Notes under the pieces: model-generated
The model's database searches: none
What the model was told of the DNA's origin: nothing
The model's input: the letters and a program-made list of their open reading frames with translations, nothing else
Part shown: positions 4,521 to 23,053 of the stretch, piece by piece
How positions within the stretch are numbered: position 1 is the stretch's first letter
Layout: each line of letters opens with the position of its first letter
Origin: a virus
Direction: 5' to 3' (one strand)
UHGV virus genome: UHGV-1385480
DNA: 30,076 bases
Made by a program: the position numbers and the translations under genes

Positions 4521-4558
4521 GTTATACCCCCATAAGATTCTATGAGGGTATTTATGGA

Positions 4559-5242: not shown

Positions 5243-5243
5243 G

Positions 5244-5414: not shown

Positions 5415-5432
5415 ATATTCACCCCTTTATTA

Positions 5433-5711: not shown

Positions 5712-5750
5712 TACGCCCCCGATATTTTTATAATTTCATGGCAGAATTAT

Positions 5751-5796
5751 TTAGATAAAAATAATCCCGCCTAACTCAAAAGAATTAAGCGGGATT
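5751..5796 (-). terminator. intrinsic terminator after the central tail fibre gene
   Basis: On the minus strand AATCCCGC ... GCGGGATT (8-bp stem, large loop) followed by AUUUUUAUCU. Confidence 0.4.
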
Positions 5797-5815
5797 AATT
5801 ATTAAAATTAAATTT

Positions 5816-8800
5816 TTAAGAAACAGTAATACCCGTAGTGGCTTTTTTAGTTACCATTACAGTTAAATCACTGATCCATGTGCTAGGCGTCCAGTTGTTG
5901 ATTGCGCTTGATTGCACTTCAAAGGTCAAGGTCACAGCACCTTTACCCGCTGGCATATCAATAACACCTGAGTAAAGACCAGTATTACCGCCATACGCCC
6001 TATTATACAACTCTGACCCATTCTTACGAACAATCAGGCGACAGGTGTCGTAATAGGTATTATTGTTCGACCCTTCACGCGCTCGCAATCCACCAAAACT
6101 AATCGCCGGAATAACGATTTGACGATCGAACTTGTGATCATCTTCAACGCGAACGGTTACTGTACCTTGCGGATAGCCGCCATAACCATTATCAACGTTA
6201 ACATCACGGTGTGGGAACTTACGACCAATCACCTTAACGAAATCACCCTTAACCTGAGTAGCTTCAAGCATACCCTTAATAACACAGCTAGAGTTAATCG
6301 TGACGTTGTTCAGAGTACCAGAATCAGCCGTGATATTACCTTTAACGGTAGCGTTCATGAACGTAGCGGACCCGTTCTTGTTGATATGCCATCCGGTTGA
6401 TCCGTTCCAGTTGGAAGACTGGATATAGTTACCAATTTTGGCGTTATCAATTGCACCGTTTACGATCTTGGCGTTAGTGATTGCCCCGTCCTGAATCTTC
6501 GCGCTGTTAATTGCGGCATTGCCGATCTTGGCAGTAGTAATCGCCGCATCATTAATCTGGGCTGTACCAATTGCAGCATTACGAATCATCGCATTATCGA
6601 GATAAACCTTGTTACCTTCGATACCAAACGGACATACCCCCGATCCATTCTGTGGAGCTACCGCGATTTTATCAGCCGTAAAGATGATTCTTGTCGGTTC
6701 TGCCGGATCATTGGTTGCGCTCATATGAATACCAGCCACGCGACCATCTGCATTAACCGCCAGATTGTATTTGCTGTTAATGGTTCCTTTCAAAGCATCG
6801 ATTTTTACATCTGCTTCCTGATTCACACCAGCAATCTTGCCATCCATTTCTACCCGAACTTGATCAATCTTACTTGCGCTTGCTGCCTCACTGGTTGCAA
6901 TTGCTTGTTTCAGGGTTGTAGCGGAGGCGCTAACTTCTTTGGTGATATCGCCTTTCAGTTCAGCTTTAACCTGATCAATCTTAGTTGAACTTGCCTTATC
7001 ACCAGAAGCAATCAGACTCTTTAAGGTATCGGCTGAGGCTTGAACAGTTTTACCCGTCTCGGTAGTGATTTGCTTATGCATTGCATCAATTTTAGCATCG
7101 GCATTAGCGCCAGCTTGCTTAATAGCATCCGCGATAGTTTCATCTAAGCGATCTTGTAAACCGATCAGGTCTTCCAGTGCTTCTTTGTCCTGATCGTCCC
7201 AACTAATCGTAGACTTCATTTGCATGAAATACGGTTCAGACCAAACAGCATCATCCATACCGAAAATATCGTAGTGAGCACCACGGATATAATAATCACC
7301 GTCAGCAATATCAAAGGAAGTATGGCTAACACTATTCGTACTTACTGCCCTTGCATCTGAGAAAGTGTTGTCGGTTGCATACTGGATGATTGACCCTGCA
7401 TAGTCATGTTCTACGTCATCCGCCCAGCTAACAAACGCAGTATTAAAGCCACCACGCGCACTAAAACCTTTCATTGGCTTATGTTGTGGGTTGATAGCCA
7501 CTAAACGCGCTGGGGCGCTCTCTGAGTTGTTATAGCCCTTAGCTGATACTTCTACCGTAAGTTGACGCGAAAGGCCGTTAAACTGGTTCATATCAAGCGT
7601 ATAAGTCCATGATTCAGGATCGCGGGTACGGTACTGAATAGACTTACCAGCCTTGTTAGTCACCTTGATAATGTATGCTTCAAACAGGTCACTAAACTTG
7701 TTAGTTTCACCGTTGATCTCAACATCTAATTGTTGCTGATTTTCCCATTCGATAATCAGATCATTACCTTCGAAAGTTCCTGGCGTGCTACCCTGATTTT
7801 TGATTCGAATAACCGGAGTCGGCAATTCATAGGTAACAGTAGGATTCTGGTTAATCAGTTCTACCCAATCGGATCTCGCGATGATACCGAAAGCACAAAC
7901 TCGGTAATCGTAGGAACGATCTTTTGCCAGTGCATTGACACTGAAAATTTGCTGTGAAGTCTGTCCCAACTTAATCCAGTTAGGTGATCCGCTTACACGG
8001 TAATCAATCTGGAAGCCGTAGCGGTTAAAATCTTCTGGTGCATCCCATGTCAAAGTAACGTTTTTACCGTAAATCGTCTCGCCAGTTGCCTTAATTCTGA
8101 AATTAGTAGGCTTCTGTACTGTCATTGAATCCGGTAAACCACTTGGTCGGTTATCTGGGTTAGCCGCATAGTTCAGGTCAGTATAAACCTGAGAATTATA
8201 TTCTGTAGCGGTGATAGTCATCATCCCAGCAATACCAGAATCAATCGAGCGATCAATTGCAGTAATACGCCATAAGGAATTATTCAGCTTCAATTCATCA
8301 TAGGTTACGCTGATAACGTCCCAAACTTCGGCAGTGAATGCGTCAGTAGTCATAAAGCTGATAACCTGAGTGATACGAGATTTATTTCGCTCAATACTCG
8401 CAAGTTTATCAATCTGGGCTTTAGACTTAACAAAACGATATTCAATATCTTTAGCGATAATTCGACCATCTTGACGAATAGTAGCATCGTTTTCAGCATC
8501 AGCCGGATAACGTAGCATTTGCTCTGAATAGTCGATTGATGGTTCTTGATACATCGCGTTAATGGTATTGAAATAACCGTTAGTGCCACCTGTTTTCAGT
8601 GATACCTTACCCATCATGATATTGTCTTCATTGAAGGTATGCTTAACAATATCAGGAGCATCCAGTTTCAGCGTAATACGTCCAAAGGATTCGAACATCA
8701 CCCCGCCGAAAGTCTGCATAAGGCTAGTCAAGTTCTCTTTAAAGCTGGCGTTCGGATCACATGCACCGTTTGAATGCAAATCCATCTGGCGTACTTGCTT

Positions 8801-9592
8801 ACGTACTTTCAGGAATGAATCAACGTTGATGTTTTCAATTGGTACACTAAGACCATATTTTGTATTTGTCAGATAATGGAAAATCTGGTCCACGCCGTTA
8901 GTGCTAGCCTCAATAGCATTGGTTTCAAGGTTACGAATCTTTAACCCGCAAACGTCTACCGCTACCTGGCTATTTGGTTGGAGAATATCAACACCAGCAG
9001 CAAGAGATTTGTCATCACGACGCAACACAATACACATGGTCGCAATACCATTGCCTTTGTAGTTGTCGTTCCAGTCTGACCCTAAGTGACGTTTTGCCAG
9101 TGACAAAGCGGTGTTAGGATTCTTACCAGTGCGGAACTCAACCTCTAAAACTTTCCGGTATTCTTCTTTAATGTTGCCTTTGTCCAGTACACCATCACGG
9201 ATCGTCATGTTCTTACCAACAAGAACATTTTTGTTATCGATGAATAGTGCTTTGTAATGGTCGATTTCACCCTCTGCAATTGCGAAGATTTGCACTAACT
9301 TATTGTTTTCTTGCTTAGAAATTGCTTTGTAAACGCAGATTGCACCCGTGCGGGTAGTACCGAAAAGAACGGGTAATACTGTCTTCGGATCGTTTGATGT
9401 TCCTAGTGTCACCGCATTATCTGGGCTTTGTACTTTCGGTGTTTTTGGTGCGCCTACAGTGGAAGCGATCAAGGTCATTGCACCAGCAGCCATACCGATA
9501 GCGACTGCGGTCATAACAGAAAATGTTGCAGCAGCAGCCATCCCAGCAGACGCACCAGCAATAACCGCGCCTACCAATATTTCAAATCCCAT
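5816..9592 (-). CDS. central tail fibre / host specificity protein (lambda gpJ-like) with an N-terminal gpI-like segment fused in frame
   Basis: C-terminus ([11 protein letters not shown] ... [12 protein letters not shown] ... VMVTKK) resembles the recalled lambda gpJ C-terminus (HPFDRQIVVLP ... MPAGRGNVILTF ... VMVIKK); N-terminal ~90 aa (Gly/Ala-rich hydrophobic stretch, [14 protein letters not shown]) resembles the recalled C-terminal part of lambda gpI; ATG overlaps the upstream stop (TAATG). Confidence 0.85.
   Translation of the reverse strand: [1258 protein letters not shown]
6425..6600 (-). repeat. tandem ~21-nt (heptapeptide) repeats inside the central fibre gene
   Basis: Protein [48 protein letters not shown]; the DNA shows the matching periodic att-gc...atctt units. 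Confidence 0.5.
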
Positions 9593-10011
9593 TATTCACC
9601 CCCGAATCTATAAACTTGTTCATAGTCAATGTCTGAAACAGGAATGGTCATCCAGATACCATCTTCTTCAACGAGGCCATAACCGGAATAATGAGGAACT
9701 ACGGAATAATAATTACGGTTTCCTAATTTGTGGGCTGTGACCAGTAAGTCGCCGTCCTGTAAATCATCAGTGACTAATTTGAAATGTTTCTTAATTGGTT
9801 GAAGGATGTTTGAATATCCGCTTAATTCTTTGCAGATTTTCAAGCCTTCTTCTTTAGTTGAATATTTTTTATAAAGAGAATTATATAGGTCAGTACCAGC
9901 GAGAATATCGATGATCTTACATGCAATGAGATTGCAATCATTCTCGCCTTGAACGAACTCCTGACCTATTAAAGAATTGATGTAATCGGTGATAAGCCTA
10001 GTTTTTAGCAT
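9592..10011 (-). CDS. minor tail protein, NlpC/P60-like (gpK-like C-terminal domain only)
   Basis: Candidate catalytic Cys in ENDCNLIACK and downstream His residues; position between the L-like and I-J genes; start chosen at ATG 10011 (GGAGGT SD 7 nt upstream) rather than the track start 10167, which has no SD and overlaps the upstream gene. Confidence 0.45.
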   Translation of the reverse strand: MLKTRLITDYINSLIGQEFVQGENDCNLIACKIIDILAGTDLYNSLYKKYSTKEEGLKICKELSGYSNILQPIKKHFKLVTDDLQDGDLLVTAHKLGNRNYYSVVPHYSGYGLVEEDGIWMTIPVSDIDYEQVYRFGGE

Positions 10012-10057
10012 GTTGAATACCTCCATGCTGTTATTTACTAGGCTTAGGGAGAAGGGA

Positions 10058-10711
10058 TTATTTCTTCGATGAATGCCACTTGCTTTCGCTTTGCCACTTC
10101 CCGGCACGGGAGAAGAATAGATCGTTCTCGTTTCCAACATAGGATCGGTGGATACCATCGGAGGCATGACTACGAGCGTTTTTATCTAGAACTTCCCAGA
10201 TACTATTAAGCTGAAATTCTGATTCGTTTTTACACTCATCATCTTCATGTTCGATGTTAATACCGATGGAATCGACTACCCCACGGAAAACAGGGTAAGT
10301 AGTTTCAACCTTGCCCGTGTTGGGGTTAAGGAAAACCATCTCGATTTTCACATCAGATTTATCGAATTGCTTGTTTCGAATCAGGGTAATGTATTCTTCG
10401 CGAACGTTAGAAACAGTTACGTTGATCCCGTTGTTGTTGATCTCCTTCTCTTCGGTATTCGATGAGATTTGAAGAAAATCACCCGTTGCGAGATACGTAA
10501 ATCCGTTATAGTCCAGATCGAAATACCCATCTGTAAGCCGTAGAACGTCCCCTGACGCGGTTACTACTTCGATAATGTGAAACATCGATCCAGTAGAGAA
10601 AAGCTGCGGTAGAGTCAATCTAGACACATTCTGACCTGTCTGGTCGTTGTAGACCTCGATGAAGTCCAGATTAGTGCATAGTTTGCTGAATGATTCCTGA
10701 ATAGTTGCCAT
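10058..10711 (-). CDS. minor tail / tail tip protein (gpL-like by position)
   Basis: Start chosen at ATG 10711 (MATIQ..., GGAGAA SD, TAATG overlap with the upstream stop) rather than the longer track ORF; assignment is mainly by synteny. Confidence 0.4.
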   Translation of the reverse strand: MATIQESFSKLCTNLDFIEVYNDQTGQNVSRLTLPQLFSTGSMFHIIEVVTASGDVLRLTDGYFDLDYNGFTYLATGDFLQISSNTEEKEINNNGINVTVSNVREEYITLIRNKQFDKSDVKIEMVFLNPNTGKVETTYPVFRGVVDSIGINIEHEDDECKNESEFQLNSIWEVLDKNARSHASDGIHRSYVGNENDLFFSRAGKWQSESKWHSSKK

Positions 10712-11271
10712 TATACATTCTCCACTAATTCGAATTTCATCTTGCCAATCTGGGCGATCTTCCAATCGATATTTTCAGTTTTGAGAACAAATTCGCCTTC
10801 TACGTTCTGATACTTGATCACCTCACCAGCCAGGACGTTTTGACGCAAGTTAGGGAAGAGTTTCATTTCACCACCTGATTTCACGTCTTCGGTGATCGTG
10901 TAGATTTTCTTGTGGTTCTCAAACTGGATGATAGTTCCCGCTTTCAGTGTTCCGGTGAAGTTGGAGATTCTCACCTTACGCCCACCGCGAGCAGTACCAG
11001 CAGCAGCCGTAACCATCTGGCGTACATCACCTGTATATTTTGAAAAGTAAGACAGTGGCACACTAAAAGGACGACCAAAAAGGTGACGTGCTACAAATTC
11101 TTTTACTTCGTTAATATCCTGAGCCATGAAATTAGCTGTAAATTCTGCTTCATAAAAATGAATGCCAGTAAAGCGACGCTGGAACTTACCAGAAATAGAT
11201 TGCGCCTTGAAGAAAGGTTGTTTTGATTTAAGAGTAAAATCTGTGATTTTAATATTCTTGGATTTGAACAT
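10711..11271 (-). CDS. minor tail protein (distal tail / gpM-like by position)
   Basis: First gene after the tape measure; 186 aa; assignment by synteny only. Confidence 0.35.
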   Translation of the reverse strand: MFKSKNIKITDFTLKSKQPFFKAQSISGKFQRRFTGIHFYEAEFTANFMAQDINEVKEFVARHLFGRPFSVPLSYFSKYTGDVRQMVTAAAGTARGGRKVRISNFTGTLKAGTIIQFENHKKIYTITEDVKSGGEMKLFPNLRQNVLAGEVIKYQNVEGEFVLKTENIDWKIAQIGKMKFELVENV

Positions 11272-11273
11272 AG

Positions 11274-11319
11274 AAAAGCCCCCATAGTTTTATGATTATT
11301 TATGACTATGGGGGCTTTT
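11274..11319. terminator. bidirectional hairpin terminator between the tape measure gene and the next tail gene
   Basis: 10-bp stem GCCCCCATAG / CTATGGGGGC, 18-nt loop, AAAA and TTTT flanks; the next start codon is 5 nt beyond the stem, so the only SD-like bases (GGGGG) lie inside the stem. Confidence 0.5.
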
Positions 11320-11321
11320 AA

Positions 11322-13754
11322 TTACATCTTACGACGCTGTGCGTCTTCTACCGCCTGAGCAACTAACTTAGCGTGACGTTTGATAGCATCCATAACCATC
11401 TTGTCTGAGCTATTAACGTTGCCGTTAATGTTCAAAGGCGCATTAACTTCAATCGGCTGAGAGTTACCACCGCCTGATTTTTGAGCAGATAAGAAGTCTT
11501 TCAAATCACCGTTAGTACGCTGATCAACTACTCGTTCACCCTTATCAAGCAACCATGTACCCTCACGCGGGATGTTATCGATACCATCATGAGCCATACC
11601 GCTAACATTAGTAGACTTGATGTTTGCAATGTTCCCCATGTTCTGAGAAACAGCCAATGCAGCAGCAGCGATCTTTTGACCTGTGGTTACGTTGGTCGGA
11701 TCGTTCCATGCATCGGTAGCAGCCGTCCACATGTTCACCGTCGCTTGTCCAATTGAGAATGCTTTATGAGCATTGAAAGCCATCTGCATAGCTTTTGTGT
11801 TTTCCTGCCCGAAGAGAGTCATTGCAGCAGCAAAACCGCCGTACATATCATCAGCTATTGACTGACGAGCATCAGCATATTTCTTTTCAATTGCAGCCAT
11901 CCGTTTTTGATGGTTTTCATTGAGTTTTTCTAATGCTTCCATCCGTTTAGCCGGATCATTAATACCGTCAATCTTGAGTTTATCGGTCTTATAATCTTGT
12001 TCAGCATCCGATTTCTCTTTATCGATTGCATTAAATTTAGCAAACGGATTATTTGAGTCTTGATAATCATAACCACTAGTTAATTGATTGGTTTTATAAC
12101 CATCCATTCCCTGTAAAGAATTTTCAATCTGAGAATAGTTTTGCTCGGTATCGTTCACACGACGCATATATTCTTCGTAGGAGATAGCTTTACCATCAAG
12201 TAACCGTTTATGGCTTTCTAGCTCGTTGTCCCTGATTTGTTGCAATTGTGTTAAAGCATTCAGAGCATCAATCGGATCAGCACCCAACATCATTTTATAA
12301 ACGTTTTCAGTATTCTGATCGATTAGCGCCTGGCGTTTCGCGGCTGCGTCTTCCTGAGAGATTAAGCCCAGAGCTAACGCGTCGTTCACATCTTTTAAGC
12401 TGTTTTGCAACTGGCTATTTTGAGAAGTGATAGACGCTGCAACTTGCCCTTGCAATTTAACATCAAGTGCATTCAGTCGCTTGATTGCATCCTCGCGTGC
12501 TTTCTGTGCTTTTTCTGCGGCTTCCTTAGCCTTTTTAGCTGCCTCTTCCGCTTTCTTTTTGGCTTCTTCCTCGGCTTTCTTCTCGTTGCCAGACTTACCC
12601 AATGATTCTGGTCTTACTGGTTTATTTGGTATAGTCAAATCAGTGTTAGGATCTGCCTTGCGTGTCAGATGTTCACCTGCATCTACGACAATCAGAGCAC
12701 CACTTGAAGTTTTATAAGACCCACCAAAACGTTTCTTAAATCCTTCAACATCAAAGCCAGCAGTACGAGGATCGACACCAGCACCACGGATCGCGGCCTT
12801 TTCCCAATCTGCTAGATTATTCCAACGCTTTTCTTTATTGTACTTGTCAATAATCTTTTGAGCGTCTTTATGGTTGGCGTTAAGAATACCACCAGTTGCG
12901 GTCTTGCCTTCTTTATTCAGTCGATCTAATGCCCTGAATAGAGAACTCTTTTCCCAATCAATATTAAACCATTCAAATAACCAGTTTAAGCTATCAACCA
13001 AAGGACCAGTAATGGTCATGGCTGCGCCTTTCAGGTTATTTTCCAGCTTATTAATATTCTGAGAAAATTTATCATATTTTTTAGCGTTTTCTTCGGTGAC
13101 GTTAACAGATTGATTCTGAATAGCGATCATCGCCTCTTGAGCACTATTATATTTCTCAAGCTGGCTGGTCATATGGCTTGAATCACTGGCTAAAGATTCC
13201 ATCATGAACTTGATTTCAGCCATTGATTTTCCGGCTTTCTTCATGTCATAGAACACTTGGATCGCCGCTTTCATACCACCTTGCGGATCTGTCATGAAGT
13301 GAGCATAGTTTTCTAACTTAAGACCAACCGATTCTAAGTCATCAGCAATACCACCACCGTTAGCCCATGCATCACCCATCTTATCTAAGGTGTCTTTGTT
13401 GATATCACCGAATTTTTCAACTGTTAGGCCAGTACCAGAAAATTCCTTTTCTAGTCTTTGAAGGGATTCAATCGAGAGTCCGGTCGCCTTAGATACTTCT
13501 GAATACTGTTTAACGTATTCCGCACCAGCTTTAGCGGCTGCAACCACTGCGGTCGCAACTAAGCCGATACCACCAGCAGCCAAACCAGCAGAGCCAGCGA
13601 TCCCACGAAGAGATCCAGTCAAACCAGACAAGCCACCACCAAAATCAATACCACTTGCCTTTTCAGACAAACTATCGAGAAGGTCGGCGGCTTCACTGGT
13701 ACTTCTCCTTAGACCTTTATTATCCCCTTCTATTGTTACTATATGTTTTGTCAT
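11322..13754 (-). CDS. tail tape measure protein
   Basis: 810 aa; Gly/Ala-rich hydrophobic N-terminal region (GIAGSAGLAAGGIGLVATAVVAAAKAG) and long Ala/Lys/Glu-rich helical regions; sits between the chaperone pair and the distal tail proteins. Confidence 0.8.
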   Translation of the reverse strand: MTKHIVTIEGDNKGLRRSTSEAADLLDSLSEKASGIDFGGGLSGLTGSLRGIAGSAGLAAGGIGLVATAVVAAAKAGAEYVKQYSEVSKATGLSIESLQRLEKEFSGTGLTVEKFGDINKDTLDKMGDAWANGGGIADDLESVGLKLENYAHFMTDPQGGMKAAIQVFYDMKKAGKSMAEIKFMMESLASDSSHMTSQLEKYNSAQEAMIAIQNQSVNVTEENAKKYDKFSQNINKLENNLKGAAMTITGPLVDSLNWLFEWFNIDWEKSSLFRALDRLNKEGKTATGGILNANHKDAQKIIDKYNKEKRWNNLADWEKAAIRGAGVDPRTAGFDVEGFKKRFGGSYKTSSGALIVVDAGEHLTRKADPNTDLTIPNKPVRPESLGKSGNEKKAEEEAKKKAEEAAKKAKEAAEKAQKAREDAIKRLNALDVKLQGQVAASITSQNSQLQNSLKDVNDALALGLISQEDAAAKRQALIDQNTENVYKMMLGADPIDALNALTQLQQIRDNELESHKRLLDGKAISYEEYMRRVNDTEQNYSQIENSLQGMDGYKTNQLTSGYDYQDSNNPFAKFNAIDKEKSDAEQDYKTDKLKIDGINDPAKRMEALEKLNENHQKRMAAIEKKYADARQSIADDMYGGFAAAMTLFGQENTKAMQMAFNAHKAFSIGQATVNMWTAATDAWNDPTNVTTGQKIAAAALAVSQNMGNIANIKSTNVSGMAHDGIDNIPREGTWLLDKGERVVDQRTNGDLKDFLSAQKSGGGNSQPIEVNAPLNINGNVNSSDKMVMDAIKRHAKLVAQAVEDAQRRKM

Positions 13755-13862
13755 AAATTACCCCGTTTGTGCGCTTCTGAGTTTCTCAAGCAAAGATGGA
13801 TCGAACATGCTCAATGTTGCAGCTTTACGTTCTTCTTCTTTCTTGCGTGCAAGTTCTTCCAG

Positions 13863-14108
13863 TTATCCTTGAGTTTTAAAGAGTTTTTCTTCTCTAATTA
13901 ATTGGAATTGGCTAGGCTTGAGTTTCTTTGCAGTTTCACGAGTCATTCCTTGCGACGTCATATACATGGAATATTGCAACATCGCATTCTGCATATCATG
14001 AAACGCGGGGCTTTGTGGTTCTAAGTAGGTGTCGAAAATGTATAATTTCCAAAACAGAGTGATTGGCATATTATCCATTTCATCTTTACTAAGCCCCGAT
14101 CGCATCAT
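13863..14108 (-). CDS. tail assembly chaperone, T-like frame (probably expressed as a frameshift extension of the upstream chaperone)
   Basis: No SD before its ATG ATG; frame is -1 relative to the upstream ORF and is open from just inside that ORF's end; canonical G/GT position before the tape measure gene. Confidence 0.4.
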   Translation of the reverse strand: MMRSGLSKDEMDNMPITLFWKLYIFDTYLEPQSPAFHDMQNAMLQYSMYMTSQGMTRETAKKLKPSQFQLIREEKLFKTQG

Positions 14109-14137
14109 TTGCCGAAAATAGAAATTCAGAAGCGGGT

Positions 14138-14446
14138 TTACTTTACCTCGTTTTCAATTACTGCCGGATCTTGCATCAATGACGCTTGAGCAACCAAACC
14201 GATTAATTCACTGCGGACGTTAGTATACAGTGCCTTAACTTGTTCCATAGATTCAAATACCGGTTTACCGTCTTCATCTTCAATACAACGAAGAATCGAA
14301 CGTTCATCACGGTCTTCTTTATCAGTATTGAAAACATGTTCGTTAAATTCTTTTACTGACATAGGGCGAGCATAGAACGTGAATCCGCCGATGGTCAGAG
14401 ATTCACGTTTCGGAGAAAGAGCTTTCAGCATTTCATTAATATTCAT
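14138..14446 (-). CDS. tail assembly chaperone (gpG-like)
   Basis: 102 aa, acidic; AGAGGA SD; position immediately upstream of the T-frame ORF and the tape measure gene. Confidence 0.5.
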   Translation of the reverse strand: MNINEMLKALSPKRESLTIGGFTFYARPMSVKEFNEHVFNTDKEDRDERSILRCIEDEDGKPVFESMEQVKALYTNVRSELIGLVAQASLMQDPAVIENEVK

Positions 14447-14488
14447 TCTTGTTTCCTCTTAAGTTAATTCGATATGTTTATTTAGAAT

Positions 14489-14995
14489 TTAAGAGATTTT
14501 CAAAGTCTGCTTAGTGCCAGTCTTCTTAATGTTGGTAAGGAAAGCAGCCGGAGGATTGCTTAACCAATAGTAATGAAAACCACTTTGCATACTGTTATAA
14601 GGAACAGTGACAGCAGCACCACCCAAATTAACGGTTATATTCCCCGCTCTACCGTTCTGGAGATATACAGCCATAGTAGGAGTACCGCCATTGAATTGAC
14701 CAACGATAACGCCAACCAGACGCCCTACGCCCACGTTTTCGGGGTTCTCCATAGATCCTTTGCTTTGCATACCGGAAACAGGATAGTTTGAAGCAGTTAC
14801 ACCCCAGTTATTACCCAATGAAGTAGACCACGATGCAGTAGCTACAACCGTATCCATACCACGACCAGCCATTGCCGACATATTACGCGGAGCCGGAACT
14901 TTTAAAGCTGTTAATGCTTCTTTCATCCATCGCTTACCCGTCACCGATACAGCAGATGACCCGATCCAGCCAGGAACTTTAACGACATTTGCCAT
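14489..14995 (-). CDS. hypothetical structural protein (168 aa), Gly/Ala/Ser-rich
   Basis: ATG 14995 with GGAG SD immediately after the tube terminator; no family recognised. Confidence 0.45.
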   Translation of the reverse strand: MANVVKVPGWIGSSAVSVTGKRWMKEALTALKVPAPRNMSAMAGRGMDTVVATASWSTSLGNNWGVTASNYPVSGMQSKGSMENPENVGVGRLVGVIVGQFNGGTPTMAVYLQNGRAGNITVNLGGAAVTVPYNSMQSGFHYYWLSNPPAAFLTNIKKTGTKQTLKIS

Positions 14996-15009
14996 TTTGA
15001 TTACTCCAA

Positions 15010-15038
15010 TAAAAAAGCCCCACCATTAAGGCAGGGCT
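15010..15038 (-). terminator. intrinsic terminator (copy A) after the tail tube gene
   Basis: Minus-strand RNA AGCCCUGCC-UUAAU-GGUGGGGCU followed by UUUUUU; near-identical to the terminator at 20879-20906. Confidence 0.7.
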
Positions 15039-15043
15039 TAAAA

Positions 15044-15169
15044 TTAATTCTTAGCCTTGCGGCCTCGTTTTGCTGTGGCTTTCGCCGTAACTTCTTCTAC
15101 TTCTGGAATCACCACCGCTTCATGTTCCGGCAGTGGTTCCGGTTCTGGTAAAGGAAGTTCTTCGTTAGT
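15044..15169 (-). other. in-frame 41-codon extension downstream of the tail tube TGA (candidate readthrough product)
   Basis: Directly after TGA-A: TNEELPLPEPEPLPEHEAVVIPEVEEVTAKATAKRGRKAKN then TAA; no ATG or SD of its own; homologous to the extension after the capsid gene. Confidence 0.4.
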
Positions 15170-15643
15170 TCATCCGGCAGTGAAGATTTGCTGTTTCAGC
15201 GGAGCACCATCAACAGCAAAGGTAAACTCTTTCGTTACCACTTCTTCATCGCCACCGTTCATAGCAACTTTAGAAATAAAGCCGTTGAAAGCAGTGCGAA
15301 TACCAGTCTGTTTTCCGGCGTCAACATAGTATTCAACTTTGATTTGAATACGCGTACCGTCTTCGGCAGCCTTTATGAGCTTCTCATGTACCGCATCACC
15401 AGGAATGTAGTTAACGGTCAGAGTCAGATCAGGAACGTTCAGTTTACCTACCAGTTTACGGTTATACTGAGAAGAGAAGGATTTAACTTCTACAGTACCG
15501 CGCTCGATACCAGTTTCAGGAAAACCAGCACACTCTTTAATTTCTTCGTATGCTTCATCGGCAAGGTCGGTGTTAGTGGTATCGGCGTGATAGAACAGAC
15601 TTACCAGACCACCAGTAAAAATATCTTTGAATTGCTGAGACAT
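15170..15643 (-). CDS. major tail (tube) protein, putative
   Basis: 157 aa; AAGGGGT SD; followed by a strong terminator, as expected for an abundant structural protein; upstream of the chaperone pair and tape measure gene; ends in TGA rather than the TAA used by other minus-strand genes. Confidence 0.5.
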   Translation of the reverse strand: MSQQFKDIFTGGLVSLFYHADTTNTDLADEAYEEIKECAGFPETGIERGTVEVKSFSSQYNRKLVGKLNVPDLTLTVNYIPGDAVHEKLIKAAEDGTRIQIKVEYYVDAGKQTGIRTAFNGFISKVAMNGGDEEVVTKEFTFAVDGAPLKQQIFTAG

Positions 15644-15699
15644 AGAATTACCCCTTAATTAAAATTGTTATTACGGGGGAACTAGTCCCCCGACTTTTA

Positions 15700-18600
15700 T
15701 TATTTAGTTGCTTTCAGTTCGGCAATTTCTTTCTGTAATGCTTCGATCTGTGCTTTATATTTGGCGTCCATTTCCTGCATAGCCTTGATGATTAAAGCAT
15801 TGACAGCAGAGTTAGAAATAGTCTTGATTGCTTCTGGATTTTCTGGATCTTCGGTGGATTGAATACCTACTGCTTCCGGCAATACTTTTTCCAGATCCTG
15901 AGCAATAATACCTACTTCGCGTTTAATCACCGTGTCATCGGAAAGAGATTTAACTTTATCGTAGGTGTAGACTTTCAGTGAGTTTACTTTCTCTAATGCA
16001 CCGTCCTGTAATTCTTCCTTGTTAATCTTCAAACGGGAGTCAGAGCGAATGTAAACATCGTTAAAGCTACCGTTACGACCTGCGGTAAAGTCACCAGCAG
16101 CGTTAAAGTCAAAGTTAGTATCGTTAACATGCAGACGAACAAGAGCGTTACCGATAGTACCGCTAGGAACGTGTACACCCATTGCTGCAATGTGATATTT
16201 ACCCCAATGAGTAGCTTTCCAGATGTTATGAGCGGAATCGGTTGATTGAGGGCAATCAACTTGCAAGCCGGATGCACGATCGCGCCAACTAGACCAGCTA
16301 CCACCAGAAACGTTACCACGAATCAAACCTTTATCAGATCCGCCGACGCTACCAGATTCAAGATGAATCATCTTATCCGCAAGTTTCCACGTCTGGGCTT
16401 GTTTCTGACCACGGAAGCGAATAACACCAGCATCATCAGAATACATCAAACCTAGTTCTAATCCAGTTGGATCTCTAAACCAGATATGCTTATTACCAGT
16501 GCGACGAAATTCAATATCAGCACCGTTAAGCGTGATATTACCGCCAGTGTGAATTGCTTGAGGCTTAACAGTACCGTTGATGGCAAACTCAATTGCCGTA
16601 GTACCCGGACCGCCCGGACGTTGGGTATACCAATGCCAACCACTTTCATCACCACATTCTAATACTTGTTTACGACTATCGTTACCCCAAGCACGAATAT
16701 TAAAGCTGGATGTAGCTGTATTTTTACCCCAAGTAAACTTACCACCAACTTCAAGATCGCCTAAGAAGTTTGCTTTAAGAGCACCAGTACCCATCGCACG
16801 CTCTGTGCTAAAATGTCTACCTTGACTATCTTCTAGGTACAAAACGTTATCACGGGCATTATTACTATCACCCCAATGATTAAATCGAATATAATCACGA
16901 GATCCGCTTCTCCCAGCAGAGAAGGTTAAAAACCCTTTCTCGATATATGTATCGCCAGCAAATCGAGCAGCACGGCTATCTCTTTCGAGAACTAATGCGC
17001 CTTCGTTACCATCACCACCTAAAGTAACTTTACCGTTAGTCAAATCGTAAATGAATGGTCGGTTTCCGTTCCAACCACCAAATCTATCATTTTCGGCAGT
17101 AGACAACAGATAAACTTTACCACCATCATTTCGCCAGAATGCACCATACTTACCGTAAATCATACGGAATGCATCAGCGTTAGCGGAATAATATTGACCA
17201 TTGGTATATACAATTTTTGTTTTTCCTGTAGTCAAATTTACTTGTCCACTACCTTCCAAATCAAATGAGTTAGCACCAACATCATTACGCCACACAAAAC
17301 CATCACTAGTACCATCCGCATGACCGATATAACCACTACGTTGGTTTTTACCATCACGACGATCCCACCACGCCATATATGCAGCTTGACCAGTCTGGCG
17401 ATGTAAAGTCATCGCATTACCACTACCGTGCAATTCCATTTTACCAGTAATTACATATCCTTTATAATTACCCGGTATTGCACTATTAGAATCAATTCTA
17501 ATAACTTCTGTAGAATCTGTAGCACCGGTAGCAAGACGATATACAGCACCCTGAACGGTTTCATGCCAAACCATTTCGTTATAGTTGCTACGGAATTTAC
17601 GAATATATTTCCGTCCAGTACCTTTATCGTTACTCAAGTGAACAATGTCATAGCTGTTTTGTGTGTTATCATCAAAACTTAACACACCACGTTTATTTTC
17701 AGTATTAAAAAGAGTTACGTTGCGACCACCGATAACACCAACGGAAGGTTTAATTAACGTGGCTTCCGGCGTATCATAAACCGTCAAACTTACATAAACA
17801 GATTTCCCATATTCGACAATAACGTTATCGGTATAACGCTGATATTTCACGTAGATATCATAGTTATCACCGGAAGTATTGACAGCAAATACCTCAAAAT
17901 CTTTGTTTGTATTTCTACGGTATGCAATTACGTTAAGACCTTTAGGTCTATCGTTACCACTACGCAGAAGAATTTCTACTACGTCAACCTGATCATATGC
18001 CGTAACGTTGTAACCATTACCACCATGAATACGGAAAAACACACTACGCCCGTTTTGTGGAATTGTTGCGGTTGCCAATTTGAAATATGCAGATACGTTT
18101 TCGCTAGAATTGGGAACAGACATAACGACGTTTTTAACAAACATCTTATCAACTTCGGCTTTGGTGTATGCGCCAATCTCGCCAGGAGTCGGCTTATCAC
18201 CTTCGTGATACATCTTATAGCTAAAGTTCTTCTGTCCTTCTCTATCAAAACCATAGGTTTCAACACGAGATCCACCAGACGCATAACGGAAAGTAAATCC
18301 GCGACCGTGCGCTTTACCGGCAGAATGAGGAACATTAAGAGTTAGATCCATGAGTCCATCTTGACCATTGGTACGGAAAGCACCAAAGTAGTTAAGATCT
18401 CTCGCTGTCTGGTCTTCCAAATAGTTAGCTGTCTTGCTTAACAGATACCCACCATGCTTAGTATTGGTATTCTTCTTGATGTAAGCAGCATCGGCACTAC
18501 CTTCAATAGAATCAATTCGCTGGTTAGCTGCGGCAATTGCGGCATCGGCACTGGCCTTGTTATTTGCAACAGTTCTTTCAATGGCTGTCTTATTCGCAGA

Positions 18601-19230
18601 GACCGTACTAGTAAGATTGGTGATCTTCGTGTCCGCATCTTTCTTATTATCCGCTACCGTCTTTTCTATTGCTGATTTATTTGCTGCGACAGTATTCGTT
18701 AAGTTGGTAACGTTGGTATTCGTCTGATCAACTCGCGCATTAATATCTGTCTTGTTCTTGTTAATTGTCGCGTTGATAGTATCGCGGGTTGAAGTAATAG
18801 TCTGATTCAGTTCAGTCTTAGCAGCCGCCAGAGCGTTAGCCGCTTCGGTTTTATTGTTACCTACTGTGGTAGTCAAAGCATCAATTCGCTTGTTGGCTGC
18901 GGTATCGCCAGCAGTGATTGAAGCATTGAGAGTATCACGGGTAGAAGTGATAGTCTGATTAAGTTCAGCTTTAGCCGTAGCCAGATTATTAGCGGCTTCG
19001 GTTTTATTTGCTGAAATGACTTTATCTGTGTTGACCTTGTTGGTGTCTACTTTCGTATTCAGTTCAGCGTGTTTTTCTGGAGAAACACTAATTTGGACTA
19101 CGTTATTATTTTTATCTTTGGTGTAAATCACATGGTCCGCCAGTTGTAAGGCGATCTCGCCCTGTGATAATTGTTCCGGCGTTGGTTTTTTACCAGCCGT
19201 TTGTGTGCGTTTAAATTGGATCGACTGCAT
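15700..19230 (-). CDS. tail fibre protein with C-terminal intramolecular chaperone (peptidase S74-like) domain
   Basis: 1176 aa; N-terminal repeated Asn/Thr/Ala-rich segments; C-terminal ~114 aa starting SDSRLKINKEEL... ending in a coiled coil, matching the self-cleaving chaperone domain of endosialidase / L-shaped fibre proteins. Confidence 0.8.
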   Translation of the reverse strand: MQSIQFKRTQTAGKKPTPEQLSQGEIALQLADHVIYTKDKNNNVVQISVSPEKHAELNTKVDTNKVNTDKVISANKTEAANNLATAKAELNQTITSTRDTLNASITAGDTAANKRIDALTTTVGNNKTEAANALAAAKTELNQTITSTRDTINATINKNKTDINARVDQTNTNVTNLTNTVAANKSAIEKTVADNKKDADTKITNLTSTVSANKTAIERTVANNKASADAAIAAANQRIDSIEGSADAAYIKKNTNTKHGGYLLSKTANYLEDQTARDLNYFGAFRTNGQDGLMDLTLNVPHSAGKAHGRGFTFRYASGGSRVETYGFDREGQKNFSYKMYHEGDKPTPGEIGAYTKAEVDKMFVKNVVMSVPNSSENVSAYFKLATATIPQNGRSVFFRIHGGNGYNVTAYDQVDVVEILLRSGNDRPKGLNVIAYRRNTNKDFEVFAVNTSGDNYDIYVKYQRYTDNVIVEYGKSVYVSLTVYDTPEATLIKPSVGVIGGRNVTLFNTENKRGVLSFDDNTQNSYDIVHLSNDKGTGRKYIRKFRSNYNEMVWHETVQGAVYRLATGATDSTEVIRIDSNSAIPGNYKGYVITGKMELHGSGNAMTLHRQTGQAAYMAWWDRRDGKNQRSGYIGHADGTSDGFVWRNDVGANSFDLEGSGQVNLTTGKTKIVYTNGQYYSANADAFRMIYGKYGAFWRNDGGKVYLLSTAENDRFGGWNGNRPFIYDLTNGKVTLGGDGNEGALVLERDSRAARFAGDTYIEKGFLTFSAGRSGSRDYIRFNHWGDSNNARDNVLYLEDSQGRHFSTERAMGTGALKANFLGDLEVGGKFTWGKNTATSSFNIRAWGNDSRKQVLECGDESGWHWYTQRPGGPGTTAIEFAINGTVKPQAIHTGGNITLNGADIEFRRTGNKHIWFRDPTGLELGLMYSDDAGVIRFRGQKQAQTWKLADKMIHLESGSVGGSDKGLIRGNVSGGSWSSWRDRASGLQVDCPQSTDSAHNIWKATHWGKYHIAAMGVHVPSGTIGNALVRLHVNDTNFDFNAAGDFTAGRNGSFNDVYIRSDSRLKINKEELQDGALEKVNSLKVYTYDKVKSLSDDTVIKREVGIIAQDLEKVLPEAVGIQSTEDPENPEAIKTISNSAVNALIIKAMQEMDAKYKAQIEALQKEIAELKATK
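18540..19010 (-). repeat. imperfect tandem repeats in the tail fibre N-terminal shaft
   Basis: Protein repeats NKTEAAN(N/A)LA(T/A)AK(A/T)ELNQTITSTRDT and TNLT(N/S)TV(A/S)ANK(S/T)AIE(K/R)TVA; the underlying DNA blocks are visibly similar. Confidence 0.5.
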
Positions 19231-19309: not shown

Positions 19310-20143
19310 TTAGTATTCGCCGAAATCGATCCGGTCAGTCTTAGCCACTGCGCCAATTTCGCTAGGTGTCGGTTTCTCATTGGTGGAATATACCTTGATC
19401 CATTCAGAGCGACCGTTTTCCTGAATATTTCGGACGCGTAAACGTGGTGCGCCAGAAGTATTACAGGTTAATTGCCATGCGCCATGCTCATTAGCTTGAA
19501 GGTGAATTAATGATGTGTCGGCTGAATATGGATTACCGCTAGCAGTTCCCTTGTAAGTTACGAAACGGTTTCCGGCTAAAGCATCACTATCAATCGGACC
19601 TGTGAATGGATGTACACCTGCACCTACGCCATAATCCCCGCGACGGAGAAGACGACCCTCCGTTGCAATACCGCGATCCAAAATCCCGCCATCTGGTTCA
19701 AGTTTAAATTCCAGTGTTACAGCTTTGTTATCACTACCACGGGTTTTGTGTGATGTGACGTAAGCATCATAGATGACATAGTAACCAGTGTTAGCAGCAC
19801 TATAGCCAGAGTTCACAACATAGAACATACGGAAGCGTAAAGGTGTTTTATCCTCTACCGCTTTCATCAACATTGCTTGATGTTCGTCATCCAGAACACG
19901 GTTTAACGTGAGTGTTGTCGGTTCCAGTCTACGATAACCAGCAAGTTTCCCCGTAGCGTCCTGATCGTACTCTTCCAGAGTTTCTATCTCTGTGGATTCG
20001 GTTAGCGTAGGAAATGCTGCAACGTTCTCGATGGAACTAAAGCTAGGATCGAAAAAGTCGACCTGATTGTCTATCTGGTTAGAGATCGACACTTCAACAT
20101 GTGACCCCGTGAAAATATCTAAGTTATCTTGTGTAATATTCAT
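19310..20143 (-). CDS. structural protein (277 aa), likely tail fibre-associated
   Basis: C-terminus contains EKPTPSEIGAVAKT, a motif shared with two sites in the adjacent tail fibre; AAGGGGT SD. Confidence 0.4.
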   Translation of the reverse strand: MNITQDNLDIFTGSHVEVSISNQIDNQVDFFDPSFSSIENVAAFPTLTESTEIETLEEYDQDATGKLAGYRRLEPTTLTLNRVLDDEHQAMLMKAVEDKTPLRFRMFYVVNSGYSAANTGYYVIYDAYVTSHKTRGSDNKAVTLEFKLEPDGGILDRGIATEGRLLRRGDYGVGAGVHPFTGPIDSDALAGNRFVTYKGTASGNPYSADTSLIHLQANEHGAWQLTCNTSGAPRLRVRNIQENGRSEWIKVYSTNEKPTPSEIGAVAKTDRIDFGEY

Positions 20144-20849: not shown

Positions 20850-20878
20850 AGTTACCCCCTTTATGGAGTATTTACATA

Positions 20879-20906
20879 CAAAAAAGCCCCACCGTTAGGC
20901 AGGGCT
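20879..20906 (-). terminator. intrinsic terminator (copy B) after the capsid gene
   Basis: Minus-strand RNA AGCCCUGCC-UAAC-GGUGGGGCU followed by UUUUUU. Confidence 0.7.
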
Positions 20907-20911
20907 AATTA

Positions 20912-21040
20912 TTATTCTTTAGTTTTACGCTGTTTTTTAGCTGTGGCTTTCGCCTTAACCGTCTGGGATTCTTCTTCCGGTTCAGGAATCAGATTTTCTT
21001 CCCCCAAATCGGGGGAAGGTTCAGATGGTTCTACAGGAGT
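20912..21040 (-). other. in-frame 42-codon extension downstream of the capsid TGA (candidate readthrough product)
   Basis: Directly after TGA-A: TPVEPSEPSPDLGEENLIPEPEEESQTVKAKATAKKQRKTKE then TAA; no independent start. Confidence 0.4.
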
Positions 21041-23053
21041 TCATTCAGCGGAGATGTGAAGAACTTTCAGAGCTTCCGGCTGTGCTACAACGTAGTCCAA
21101 ATCTACAAAGATACGAGGCACTACCGCACCACGATCACGGTATGTAGTTAGATCCATATCCAGTTCCAGACCGCCCCACTCACCGATAGTAATACCGGAG
21201 AAGTCACCCAGAACGATGTGGTCTGCCGGAATAACGCCAGAAGTAACTACTTCGTAACCAGCCAGTTTGCCGTTTTCGATGATATAACCGGAAACGCCGT
21301 TATCTTTCAGGGTAGATTCCAGTTCAGCAGCAGTTGCACCGCTCATCGCAAACTTGATCGCCTGAGCAGGAACGCCAGCGTCAGTCAGTGCTGCAATTTC
21401 TTTCAGGAAGTCTTTATAAGAGAAAGCAGCTTTCTTGGTAACGCGGCTAGCGTCTACCAGTTGCTTAACCAGACCAGCCGGACCACGAGCATTTTCTTTA
21501 TCAGACAGAATCAGTTGTTCCAGTTTGATCCGAACAGATTTGTTAATGTGATCGGTGATCAGGGTAGCGATGCCCGGAACGGTTTTCAGCGACTGACGGC
21601 TGATCGGGTTGCCACCAGCAAAAGTTTTCGGAGACAGTTTCACGTTCGAAAATTCCGCATGTGACTCGGGGGCAGCGCCATTTTCGTCAACGAATCCGAA
21701 AGCGTCAACGCTGGATTTAGTCATTTTTGGAATAGCGGTCGGAGAAGTCAAGCCACTATAAACAGTCACCCCGAGGCGGCCTAAAACACTCTGAGGCAAC
21801 AGCATTTCGATGTAGGATTCAGTCATCAGTTTTTCGTCAGTGATAGCAACCAGATTAGCTTTGGTGTTGCCATCAGCAGCAGCACGCATAGCAGCAGCCG
21901 GAACGAATACAGAGCCACCACGAGCAGCACGACCACGCTGCATAGTTGCAGTAGCAGCCATTGCGGAATATTCAGCTTCGTTAGCGCCGAGCACGTCGCC
22001 ATCTACCAGGGAGCGGATTACGTTATTAAGATCGAAAGTTTTTTCCATGATTTGTTCCTTATTAATTTGTTCGTTATTACGTTGAGCATTGGTAATGTTA
22101 TTTAGTGCCTTAGTGCGGAATGCTTCCGGCGTAATTTCTTTATTTGCCAATGCGCGTTTAAATTCTTCATCGTCTTCGTTAATATTTAACTCGCGTGCAA
22201 TTTCGCGAATTTCTAATTCGTCTTCTTCGGAACGTTCAGCCACTTCCTCGGTTTTTTCTTCTTCAACCGGAGCAGCTTCACGTTCTTCTTTTACTTCTTC
22301 TGTTTCCCGAACAGTTGAACTATCATCATCAACACTTTCAGGATGTTCAGCGTCTTTTCCGTCTTCGAGATTTTCATCTTCTTTATTCTCTTCAACTTGG
22401 CGCTCTTGAGTTTCTTCAACTTCCGGTTCTTTATTTTCTTCTACCGGAGTTTCTTCAACCTGAGCGGATTCTTGTTCTTCTTTGATTTCTTCAATTTGTT
22501 CTTTAGTCATATCGCGTTTAGCCTCCAAATTAACTGTGATAGTATTTAGAGAGCGATTTAAACCGACCGAATCGTCCGCCGGGACCGTAACAAAACTTAA
22601 TTCGAAAGGAACAAACTTAGTAACAATCAATTGTCCTTTGGCATAATCGATGTGATATTCTTTAATGTCATAACCGACAGAAATTTTTTCCATCGTACCT
22701 TCAATGACTTTATTACGAATATCATTAGCCAAAGTGCCATGCTTAGAGAATCTAACGGTCGCACGGCCTACTTTATCCGCATCGATTCGAGCGTTACAAA
22801 CGACACCTAAATGATTATCGAAATTATGATTAAACAGCAACGGAGCGTTATTATTCAGACGAGACAGATCAACCGCTTCCGGTGTATGTACCAGAATTTC
22901 ATCTAATACCACCATTTCTTGATTTTGCTCATCCCAGAATTGGCGCTGATAAGGCTGTTCACTGGAGAAAGCAATTTCAAATTCGTATTGATCGTTATGC
23001 CCTTCGTTAATAACTCCACCGTAACCGTTAAGTTCGCGGCGAAATTTAAGCAT
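21041..23053 (-). CDS. prohead protease - acidic scaffold-like linker - HK97-fold major capsid protein, single fused ORF
   Basis: N-terminal ~170 aa with LFNHN...LG and ELSFVTVPADDSVGL motifs typical of HK97-type prohead proteases; ~160 aa Glu-rich low-complexity middle; C-terminal 335 aa with capsid-like composition; ends in TGA. Confidence 0.75.
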   Translation of the reverse strand: MLKFRRELNGYGGVINEGHNDQYEFEIAFSSEQPYQRQFWDEQNQEMVVLDEILVHTPEAVDLSRLNNNAPLLFNHNFDNHLGVVCNARIDADKVGRATVRFSKHGTLANDIRNKVIEGTMEKISVGYDIKEYHIDYAKGQLIVTKFVPFELSFVTVPADDSVGLNRSLNTITVNLEAKRDMTKEQIEEIKEEQESAQVEETPVEENKEPEVEETQERQVEENKEDENLEDGKDAEHPESVDDDSSTVRETEEVKEEREAAPVEEEKTEEVAERSEEDELEIREIARELNINEDDEEFKRALANKEITPEAFRTKALNNITNAQRNNEQINKEQIMEKTFDLNNVIRSLVDGDVLGANEAEYSAMAATATMQRGRAARGGSVFVPAAAMRAAADGNTKANLVAITDEKLMTESYIEMLLPQSVLGRLGVTVYSGLTSPTAIPKMTKSSVDAFGFVDENGAAPESHAEFSNVKLSPKTFAGGNPISRQSLKTVPGIATLITDHINKSVRIKLEQLILSDKENARGPAGLVKQLVDASRVTKKAAFSYKDFLKEIAALTDAGVPAQAIKFAMSGATAAELESTLKDNGVSGYIIENGKLAGYEVVTSGVIPADHIVLGDFSGITIGEWGGLELDMDLTTYRDRGAVVPRIFVDLDYVVAQPEALKVLHISAE

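Follow-up and report, generated by a model that had tools for sequence, protein, structure and literature searches.

The stretch of viral DNA analyzed here, UHGV virus genome UHGV-1385480 (30,076 nucleotides (nt) in all, hereafter the window), is, judged by its gene content, the late region of a temperate E. coli siphophage, or prophage. It carries two copies of a short cassette, one 3' of the gene for the major capsid protein (MCP) and the other 3' of the gene for the tail tube protein (TTP). Each copy begins at a TGA stop codon, continues as an open frame and ends at a predicted terminator (Table 1). The temperate assignment rests on the serine integrase, endolysin and anti-repressor that the window also encodes, and on the same gene arrangement in 22 of 5426 complete genomes, as part of E. 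coli chromosomes. The structural-module genes relevant to the cassette all lie on the minus strand, and run from MCP through a gpW-like head-tail protein, a 167-amino acid (aa) protein, a 277-aa TTP paralog and a 1176-aa fiber to TTP, followed by a gp38-type adhesin, the tail assembly chaperone, the tape measure and the distal tail proteins, including a gpJ-like tip protein. MCP matches PHROG 617 (major head protein, 2.7e-92) and the Pfam families Peptidase_S78 and Phage_capsid, and its closest solved structure is the roseophage R4C capsid (8gta). TTP matches PHROG 158 (major tail protein, 7.5e-22), with the Pfam family TTP_11 at 28.1 bits, marginally under its 28.4-bit threshold.

The two cassettes share the 15-mer GCTGTGGCTTTCGCC, which occurs exactly twice in the window, at plus-strand positions 15072-15086 and 20940-20954, and for which any match was found in 0 of 100 shuffles. 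The duplicated block is longer than this word: 15011-15091 aligns with 20880-20959 at 77.8% identity over 81 nt with one gap (blastn, E=7e-13), and a repeat search recovers the same block as an 80-nt direct repeat (family D4). Aligning the coding parts of the copies requires only one 9-nt and one 12-nt gap. In both genes, the TGA is followed by ACT and the frame stays open for 41 (TTP) or 42 (MCP) codons, up to a TAA located 4-5 nt ahead of a hairpin. These hairpins are the two best minus-strand terminator-like sites of the region (stems 15039-15015 and 20906-20885); they have identical 9-bp stems and different loops, and both run into TTTTTT, as predicted for intrinsic (Rho-independent) terminators. 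The preliminary description of this DNA had reported the plus-strand coordinates of the shared block, the identical 15-mer in both copies and the near-identical terminators behind them, and all of these are confirmed. A comparable open frame appears in 11-15% of dinucleotide shuffles, so the extensions owe their significance to being duplicated and to the comparison with relatives rather than to the open reading frames (ORFs) themselves.

Table 1. Cassette features and the virion genes that carry or precede them, in window coordinates
Feature	Position	Strand	Detail
Large terminase, lambda-type	25189-27093	minus	
Portal	23100-24611	minus	
MCP gene, prohead protease/major capsid protein fusion, 670 aa	21041-23053	minus	TGA at 21041-21043
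Candidate leaky stop TGA-A, MCP end	21040-21043	minus	39/39 distinct MCP extension contexts
MCP linker, acidic Pro/Glu/Ser-rich, 28 codons, TPVEPSEPSPDLGEENLIPEPEEESQTV	20957-21040	minus	translation
GC-rich hairpin inside MCP linker, CCUUCCCCC-GAUU-UGGGGGAAG	20998-21019	minus	predicted fold
MCP tip, basic Lys/Arg/Ala, KAKATAKKQRKTKE, includes shared 15-mer	20915-20956	minus	
Tandem TAA TAA closing MCP extension, directly ahead of terminator stem	20909-20914	minus	
Predicted terminator after MCP cassette, AGCCCTGCC-TAAC-GGTGGGGCT + T-run	20875-20906	minus	9 pairs, 6 GC (terminator scan)
TTP gene, tail tube protein, lambda-gpV-like, 157 aa	15170-15643	minus	TGA at 15170-15172
Candidate leaky stop TGA-A, TTP end	15169-15172	minus	25/25 distinct TTP extension contexts
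TTP linker, acidic Pro/Glu, 27 codons, TNEELPLPEPEPLPEHEAVVIPEVEEV	15089-15169	minus	translation
TTP tip, basic, TAKATAKRGRKAKN, includes shared 15-mer, core of the 15044-15086 span of the preliminary description	15047-15088	minus	
TAA closing TTP extension, 4 nt ahead of terminator stem	15044-15046	minus	
Predicted terminator after TTP cassette, AAGCCCTGCC-TTAAT-GGTGGGGCTT + T-run	15005-15039	minus	10 pairs, 6 GC (terminator scan)

Translation of the two extensions (41 and 42 codons) gives TNEELPLPEPEPLPEHEAVVIPEVEEVTAKATAKRGRKAKN and TPVEPSEPSPDLGEENLIPEPEEESQTVKAKATAKKQRKTKE, each consisting of an acidic linker and a basic tip. This charge design is found in 35 of 35 distinct variants, with a net charge of -4 to -9 in the linker and +4 to +7 in the tip, and the tips vary by Lys/Arg exchanges and by synonymous changes of Lys/Arg codons, so that the charge pattern is retained. 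Pfam identifies no domain in the extensions, which at 28-45 residues do not correspond to a folded β-sandwich of ~80-100 residues (Ig-like, FN3 or BIG2). In the AlphaFold model of TTP, the core has pLDDT values of 80-94 and the extension falls below 50 at residues 159-165 and 169-198; the TTP extension is thus predicted to be disordered. These 120-130 nt are left unannotated by gene callers and by PGAP. At the RNA level, neither the 28-codon variant nor the TTP copy has the GC-rich hairpin predicted inside the MCP linker. The TTP linker has a stable hairpin of its own (~15102-15140, GGAACCACUGCCGG...CGGUGGUGAUUCC); the two linker hairpins are unrelated in sequence and are missing in shorter variants.

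Related loci were collected from IMG/VR, metagenomes, Logan/NCBI assemblies and complete genomes, ~130 in all (designated L with a number), and stop codons were compared over distinct 260-nt contexts, 64 with the extension (129 loci) and 45 without it. The preliminary description had named absence of the cassette from all relatives as one outcome that would speak against it; the cassette is instead present in ~130 related loci. TGA-A precedes the extension in 64/64 contexts that have one and is found in 0/45 contexts that lack one. Among the latter, MCP homologs without an in-frame extension (16 contexts) end in TAA, save for one Edwardsiella capsid gene with TGA-T, and TTP homologs end in TAA in 29/29 distinct contexts. 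Within the window, 25 of the 30 ORFs taken as genes stop at TAA, and MCP and TTP are the only genes of the minus-strand structural module that stop at TGA. A conserved 18-mer of the cassette occurs 55 times in the retrieved IMG/VR loci, every time in frame behind such a TGA. The bases downstream of the UGA are variable (ACTCCT, ACTAAC, AATAAC or ACTTTC). Among stop codons, UGA leaks most in E. coli, chiefly by being decoded as Trp (PMC11126739), and in this organism tRNA-Trp misreads UGA most often when the next base is A (PMC5289835).

Across the 64 contexts, no sense codon or TAA was seen in place of the TGA with the extension kept. A search of a 5.8-billion protein set for fused, sense-codon versions returned, with the tube query, only P0001, a 198-aa protein (L001, ERZ27280761 contig k141_243218) that appears to fuse tube and extension with Trp at the junction. 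Its DNA has TGA, and P0001 is evidently an annotation artifact, its gene having been predicted with a genetic code in which TGA means Trp. The same search with the capsid C-terminus was insensitive and returned two partial proteins only. The lack of any natural sense-codon variant suggests that full occupancy of the virion by the extension, or tag, is selected against.

The reading frame between the two stops is maintained through extensive length variation. MCP extensions have 28, 33, 42, 43, 44 or 45 codons and TTP extensions 36, 39, 40 or 41, all in frame. The indels between the two stops, at least eight of them, are all multiples of three (54, 27, 9, 9, 6, 6, 3 and 3 nt); the largest, the 54-nt and 27-nt deletions, remove whole codons from the MCP linker of relatives. 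In the hairpin loop and T-run that come right after the second stop, indels are 1-2 nt long. This contrast across the second stop is the strongest argument that ribosomes read the stretch in that frame. Both window extensions lie in frame 0, and the other two frames there hold 2-6 stops.

Taken on sequence evidence, UGA-A readthrough probably yields minor, C-terminally extended head and tail subunits. Under this mechanism, the majority of ribosomes would terminate at the UGA of the MCP and TTP genes, while a small fraction, probably ~1% or a few percent, would insert Trp via near-cognate tRNA-Trp and continue. Readthrough is expected to be basal and context-dependent, at about the percent level, because the conserved feature is UGA-A and UGA is leaky in E. 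coli. The products would be minor MCP and TTP isoforms ~4.5 kDa longer than the main forms, carrying a flexible acidic Pro/Glu spacer and a Lys/Arg/Ala tip with a charge of +4 to +7, and the expected readthrough junction peptides are VLHISAEWTPVEPSEPSPDLGEENLIPEPEEESQTVK and QQIFTAGWTNEELPLPEPEPLPEHEAVVIPEVEEVTAK. A typical capsid of such phages has ~400 subunits and a tube ~200. At the percent level, there would then be a few tagged subunits per capsid and per tube, with the same charged tag on head and tail.

Structural comparison indicates where the tag could be displayed. Foldseek places TTP closest to the lambda gpV tube domain (7t2e/8k36, probability 1.0, E ~5e-7, ~143 columns); a sequence search of the PDB with a TTP profile gave no matches, and it was the fold search that gave gpV. 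The TTP extension begins where the gpV tube domain ends. In lambda gpV, an outward-facing Ig-like domain follows the tube domain, and since this peripheral domain begins at the same point, a tag on the tube should project outward. MCP is an HK97-fold protein, and by analogy with T7 10B display its C-terminus, and the tag with it, is expected to be external as well. The role of the tag is a matter of speculation. Weak electrostatic adhesion to polyanions such as lipopolysaccharide (LPS), capsule, DNA or mucus might be its contribution, and this adhesive function is a guess.

Several observations weigh against readthrough into a functional tag. INPHARED nucleotide searches and a protein search recovered no isolated, characterized member of this prophage family. 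No conserved readthrough-stimulating structure is present among the variants; the linker hairpins were considered as stimulators and rejected, being variant-specific and starting 22-28 nt past the UGA. Readthrough would be at the basal UGA-A level, and lower still in wild strains with efficient RF2. For the capsid, the paper on the R4C structure gave no orientation of the C-terminus. The window tips (KKQRKTKE and KRGRKAKN) have no match to the AT-hook (Pfam PF02178), and the tips of some relatives (KKVGRPPKAK) reach 13.2-14.2 bits against a cut-off of 17.4 bits and thus stay below threshold. The extension appears to be dispensable, because many relatives lack it on one or both genes. Substitutions are only weakly coding-like: the pooled ratio of nonsynonymous to synonymous changes (pN/pS) is 0.45 for TTP and 0.73 for MCP, with no third-position excess. 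As the substitution test gave so weak a signal, the case rests on the indels, the stop-codon association and the charge pattern. A 20-nt core, GTTACGGCGAAAGCCACAGC, is almost invariant, synonymous sites included, which would fit frequent gene conversion between the copies or an added constraint at the nucleotide level (RNA or DNA). Within it, the invariant GGCGAAAGCC (15074-15084 and 20942-20952, minus strand) can form a 3-bp GNRA mini-hairpin, GGC-GAAA-GCC. One tube-gene lineage (L002-L004) has GGA-GAAA-TCC in its place, which keeps the pairing and changes TAKATAK to TEKSTAK. This double change is the one hint of RNA-level constraint, in a hairpin that is very small.

These last observations are also what an explanation without any role for the peptide would draw on. 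The stretch might be selected as RNA or for regulation, either as a terminator-proximal element (a small RNA derived from the 3' untranslated region, or a protein or RNase site) or as a device by which readthrough ribosomes melt the terminator and allow downstream expression. Near-invariance of the core and of the terminator stems, synonymous sites included, the compensatory-looking change in the mini-hairpin and pN/pS values of only 0.45-0.73 would all be expected of such an element. Both 3' regions also fold better than shuffles (z = -3.6 and -4.3), the second stop is always a few nt from the hairpin, and the transit of ribosomes would in itself account for the kept frame. However, no part of the window matches an Rfam family at gathering thresholds, the variants do not share their linker hairpins, and in two loci (L111 and L113) unrelated terminators follow the coding part. 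The acidic-linker/basic-tip design is kept while nucleotides differ, down to two-nucleotide Lys/Arg replacements, and a role in RNA alone leaves unexplained why relatives have similar C-termini as a constitutive part of the protein. We therefore consider selection on RNA or regulation alone unlikely. The preliminary description had itself foreseen that the shared block might be conserved as terminator-proximal RNA and not as coding sequence; the in-frame indels, the association with TGA-A and the coding parts found with other terminators do not bear this out.

Two further explanations were weighed. The extensions could be neutral remnants of longer C-termini truncated by nonsense mutation, or by-products of a spacer linked to the terminator, as might be supposed from their dispensability in many relatives, from weak purifying selection on substitutions and from the 11-15% of shuffles that hold a ~42-codon open frame. 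A neutral origin would hardly leave the same TGA-A in 64 distinct contexts on three gene backgrounds, with no sense-codon revertant and no change to TAA, nor would it confine at least eight indels to the frame when adjacent non-coding bases show no such restraint, and we regard it as quite improbable. More improbable again, to the point of being hardly credible, is that the stretch encodes an independent small peptide made by internal initiation or reinitiation, or that the UGA is decoded by selenocysteine, by a phage suppressor tRNA or in a host that reads TGA as Trp. GTG, TTG and CTG codons do occur in some linkers and both stops in the window lie in an ATGA overlap, but there is no conserved start codon or Shine-Dalgarno sequence, and the ATGA is lost in variants ending GGT/GCT/GAG/GAC-TGA. 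A selenocysteine insertion sequence (SECIS) would require a conserved hairpin next to the UGA, whereas those present begin 22-28 nt downstream and are missing in short variants. The window holds no tRNA, and the hosts are E. coli chromosomes with the standard code.

Readthrough, which the comparative data support well, remains the preferred account, and the relatives indicate that the element it would serve is mobile. The cassette is found on three gene backgrounds: TTP, the usual MCP (type A) and a second MCP type (type B; L010, L025, L026 and L091) that is 38% identical to it and in which similarity starts essentially at the TGA. Three different terminators accompany the coding part in all, including the unrelated ones noted above, and the terminator appears usually to travel with the cassette without being obligatory. 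Relatives with a 58-60% identical tube gene miss the tube copy and keep the capsid copy. The short capsid variant begins NNEELPEE, resembling the TNEELPEPEP of the tube copy, the type-B capsid tip KRGRKPKE has the codons of the tube copy, and one capsid copy bears the tube copy's terminator loop. From such patterns, the head and tail copies are best read as mosaics that exchange segments, and the cassette as duplicated and mobile within the phage family. The proposal of a portable 3' module in the preliminary description thus stands for two capsid types and the tube, with segment exchange, and needs amending in that the terminator is not an obligatory part of it (L111 and L113).

Distant relatives appear to reach a charged tail by other routes. 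Where the terminator directly follows the capsid stop, the tail is constitutive and the protein ends in an Ala/Lys-rich sequence (...EASKAK in Salmonella, ...AEAKAGK, ...KAALKASA and ...AKSKA). Where a spacer of at least 60 nt follows the capsid stop, it is spanned exactly by a Lys/Arg-rich ORF in the -1 frame. Such ORFs start behind the heptamers A_AAA_AAG (L121), A_AAA_AAA (L046) or G_GUA_AAG (Edwardsiella L104), and G_GUA_AAG and A_AAA_AAG also sit at the tail-chaperone G/GT frameshift sites of these genomes. The -1-frame peptide of L104, VIPTGREEVSVKSGRKPKTDN, is recognizably homologous to the E. coli tag. This suggests that distant relatives use a -1 frameshift like that of T7 10B instead of readthrough, and frameshift-type extensions were found only in such relatives (L104, L121, L046 and L007/L051). 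In the Edwardsiella tube gene, ...VIPEAVAAKEK is fused directly in frame. With each lineage represented by one or a few sequences, these cases are no more than suggestive that the charged C-termini of these proteins are important.

The -1 ORFs behind capsid genes lie in L104, L105 and L042 (Edwardsiella; stop at L104:2787), L121:3170, L046:5021, L045:5238, L048, L049, L120 and L099:7787, and some begin behind an A_AAG in phase. The Buttiauxella tube gene (L007 and L051, stop at 10478) ends TCG GGA AAC CCG TAA with a canonical G_GGA_AAC heptamer in phase, followed by a GC hairpin, CCCCTCCGGGAACGGGGGGG, and a 40-codon -1 ORF, PPGTGGNPDPDYVATEPPTDEIDLPDVDLDDIINGAGT, that extends up to the terminator; its acidic tube extension is probably made by frameshift. 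A contig scan of genomes returned one locus, in Buttiauxella. In INPHARED, neither near nor distant nucleotide searches turned up relatives of the capsid or tube region, the only match being that of the fiber gene to RB49-like T-even phages. Among isolated phages, a protein search gave a best capsid match of 43% identity, in the record of Escherichia phage DCP80. That record (L099, PQ671644.1; positions 1-16786) opens with a module of terminase, portal and protease-capsid genes that shows 43% identity to the present siphophage family, and past the capsid TAA there is a small ORF, MSLGAEALDAAPVKKSKSASG, with an A7 run. The record is classed as a 141-kb T-even phage (Tevenvirinae, Gaprivervirus) and may be a chimeric assembly or mislabeled.

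Other features of the structural module are worth recording. The 277-aa protein (19310-20143) has an N-terminal half that is a TTP paralog (~30% identity; PHROG 158) and ~120 C-terminal residues without a family match; it sits between the head-tail joining genes and the fiber and could be a collar, a fiber anchor or a second tube-like ring. The fiber gene (15700-19230) is 77-89% identical in DNA over ~2.6 kb to gp37, the distal long-tail-fiber gene of RB49-like T-even phages (Krischvirus), and the gp38-type adhesin gene lies at 14489-14995, with the TTP gene and its cassette placed between fiber and adhesin in this lineage. From sequence similarity, this looks like a T-even receptor-binding module transferred horizontally into a temperate siphophage. 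Three tandem 30-nt units within the gpJ-like tip gene (6434-6553) and a 92-nt repeat within the fiber gene (18764-19008; 82% identity, 153-nt spacing) probably correspond to repeated structural elements in fibrous domains. At 14138-14150 (minus strand), the gene for the tail assembly chaperone finishes with GAG GTA AAG TAA, and its -1 frame (13863-14146) is open for 92 codons past the stop, with a weak match to Pfam Phage_tail_T. This site reads as the usual G/GT frameshift on an unusual heptamer, G_GUA_AAG, and the E. coli and Salmonella relatives have this heptamer conserved. In the 140-aa gene downstream of the gpW-like gene, ARAGORN calls antisense 91-nt "tRNAs" (Gln, Glu or Lys depending on the locus; L003:5194-5284, L009, L016, L017, L020, L022, L024, L041 and others); given their odd length and inconsistent anticodons, these were rejected as probable false positives.

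Comparison with known recoded virion proteins shows both resemblance and difference. Qbeta is a single-stranded RNA phage whose A1 extension is a large folded domain and essential. The extensions described here are 28-45 residues long, predicted to be disordered, apparently dispensable and common to head and tail genes of a double-stranded DNA siphophage, and they have no sequence relation to A1. The resemblance lies in an in-frame capsid extension behind UGA in an E. coli host, known here from sequence alone; in Qbeta (Allolevivirus), the leaky UGA of the coat gene is read through by host tRNA-Trp and a few copies of A1 enter each virion (PMC8880383; PMC5289835). The Listeria phages PSA, A118 and A500 make long forms of capsid (Cps) and tail (Tsh) proteins by programmed frameshifting, +1 or -1, at CCC_UGA or with a pseudoknot (PMC5009743). 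As in those phages, the major capsid and major tail protein of one siphophage would both gain a longer C-terminal isoform, here by readthrough; the Listeria extensions are not described as copies of one module. A minor extended HK97-fold capsid protein co-assembles with the major form in T7/T3, where 10B is a -1 frameshift product of 10A, and Lactobacillus phage A2 likewise has frameshift-made long forms of its head and tail proteins (PMC5009743). Compared with T7/T3 10B, the proposed mechanism differs and the sequences are unrelated, the T3 extension being Ig-like.

On the tube, SPP1 gp17.1* is a recoded extension of gp17.1 produced by a +1 shift at a ratio of 3:1 and is non-essential (PMC6316719). 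SPP1 gp17.1*, lambda gpV and the protein considered here all have an extra C-terminal piece outside the tube domain. In SPP1 and lambda, these additions are folded FN3 or Ig domains of ~90 residues, and that of lambda is constitutive, whereas here a short, disordered, charged peptide would follow a UGA. The tips resemble AT-hook and histone-H1-like tails in being Lys/Arg/Ala-rich, and some relatives have a GRP core flanked by Lys; they differ from true AT-hooks in the subthreshold scores of those relatives and in the lack of any match for the window tips. Ig-like domains move between phage structural genes and are reached in whichever frame they land (PMC5009743), and in concept nothing described comes nearer than this mobility to a C-terminal module that is both portable and recoded. 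The view in the preliminary description that such a feature type had no described precedent is thus too strong, as close functional precedents exist in Qbeta A1 and in the frameshift extensions of T7/T3, Listeria PSA/A118 and SPP1. No report of stop-codon readthrough in the capsid or tube genes of tailed phages was found in the searchable literature, which mostly excludes subscription journals. What is apparently new here is the probable use of readthrough in a tailed double-stranded DNA phage, a short charged peptide predicted to be disordered, and one cassette shared by head and tail of a single virion.

Once confirmed, the system would be a natural example of structural isoforms that a tailed double-stranded DNA phage produces by UGA readthrough, where the known paradigms are readthrough in Qbeta and frameshifts in tailed phages. 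It would mean that unrelated virion genes can pass between them, as a single cassette, a recoding signal with its linker and functional tip, usually along with a terminator, and that related phages swap readthrough, frameshift and plain fusion for the same end. Such isoforms would be systematically missed, because gene callers and PGAP skip the stretch and a caller that reads TGA as Trp fuses it by accident. Sequenced E. coli lysogens, such as PI7 (NZ_CP074033.1, prophage at ~759-777 kb) and 24AR0357 (NZ_CP195351.1), allow a direct test of the system, which could also give engineers a ready-made site for low-copy display on both capsid and tail in this host.

A broader proposal, which we put forward tentatively and rate as doubtful, is that a family of enterobacterial siphophages displays a few copies of one portable disordered tag on head and tail, reached by UGA-A readthrough in the E. 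coli clade, by -1 frameshift in other members and by constitutive fusion in still others, with the state of the host at lysis setting the density of the tag. An AT-hook-like basic tip on an acidic spacer would be the composition of the tag on that proposal. UGA readthrough in E. coli varies with temperature, nutrients and pH (PMC11126739), and for this reason host physiology at lysis would set the tag density. If this is true, virions would differ in their stickiness to LPS, capsule, DNA and mucus, giving these phages a way to adjust adsorption, aggregation or environmental retention to host physiology.

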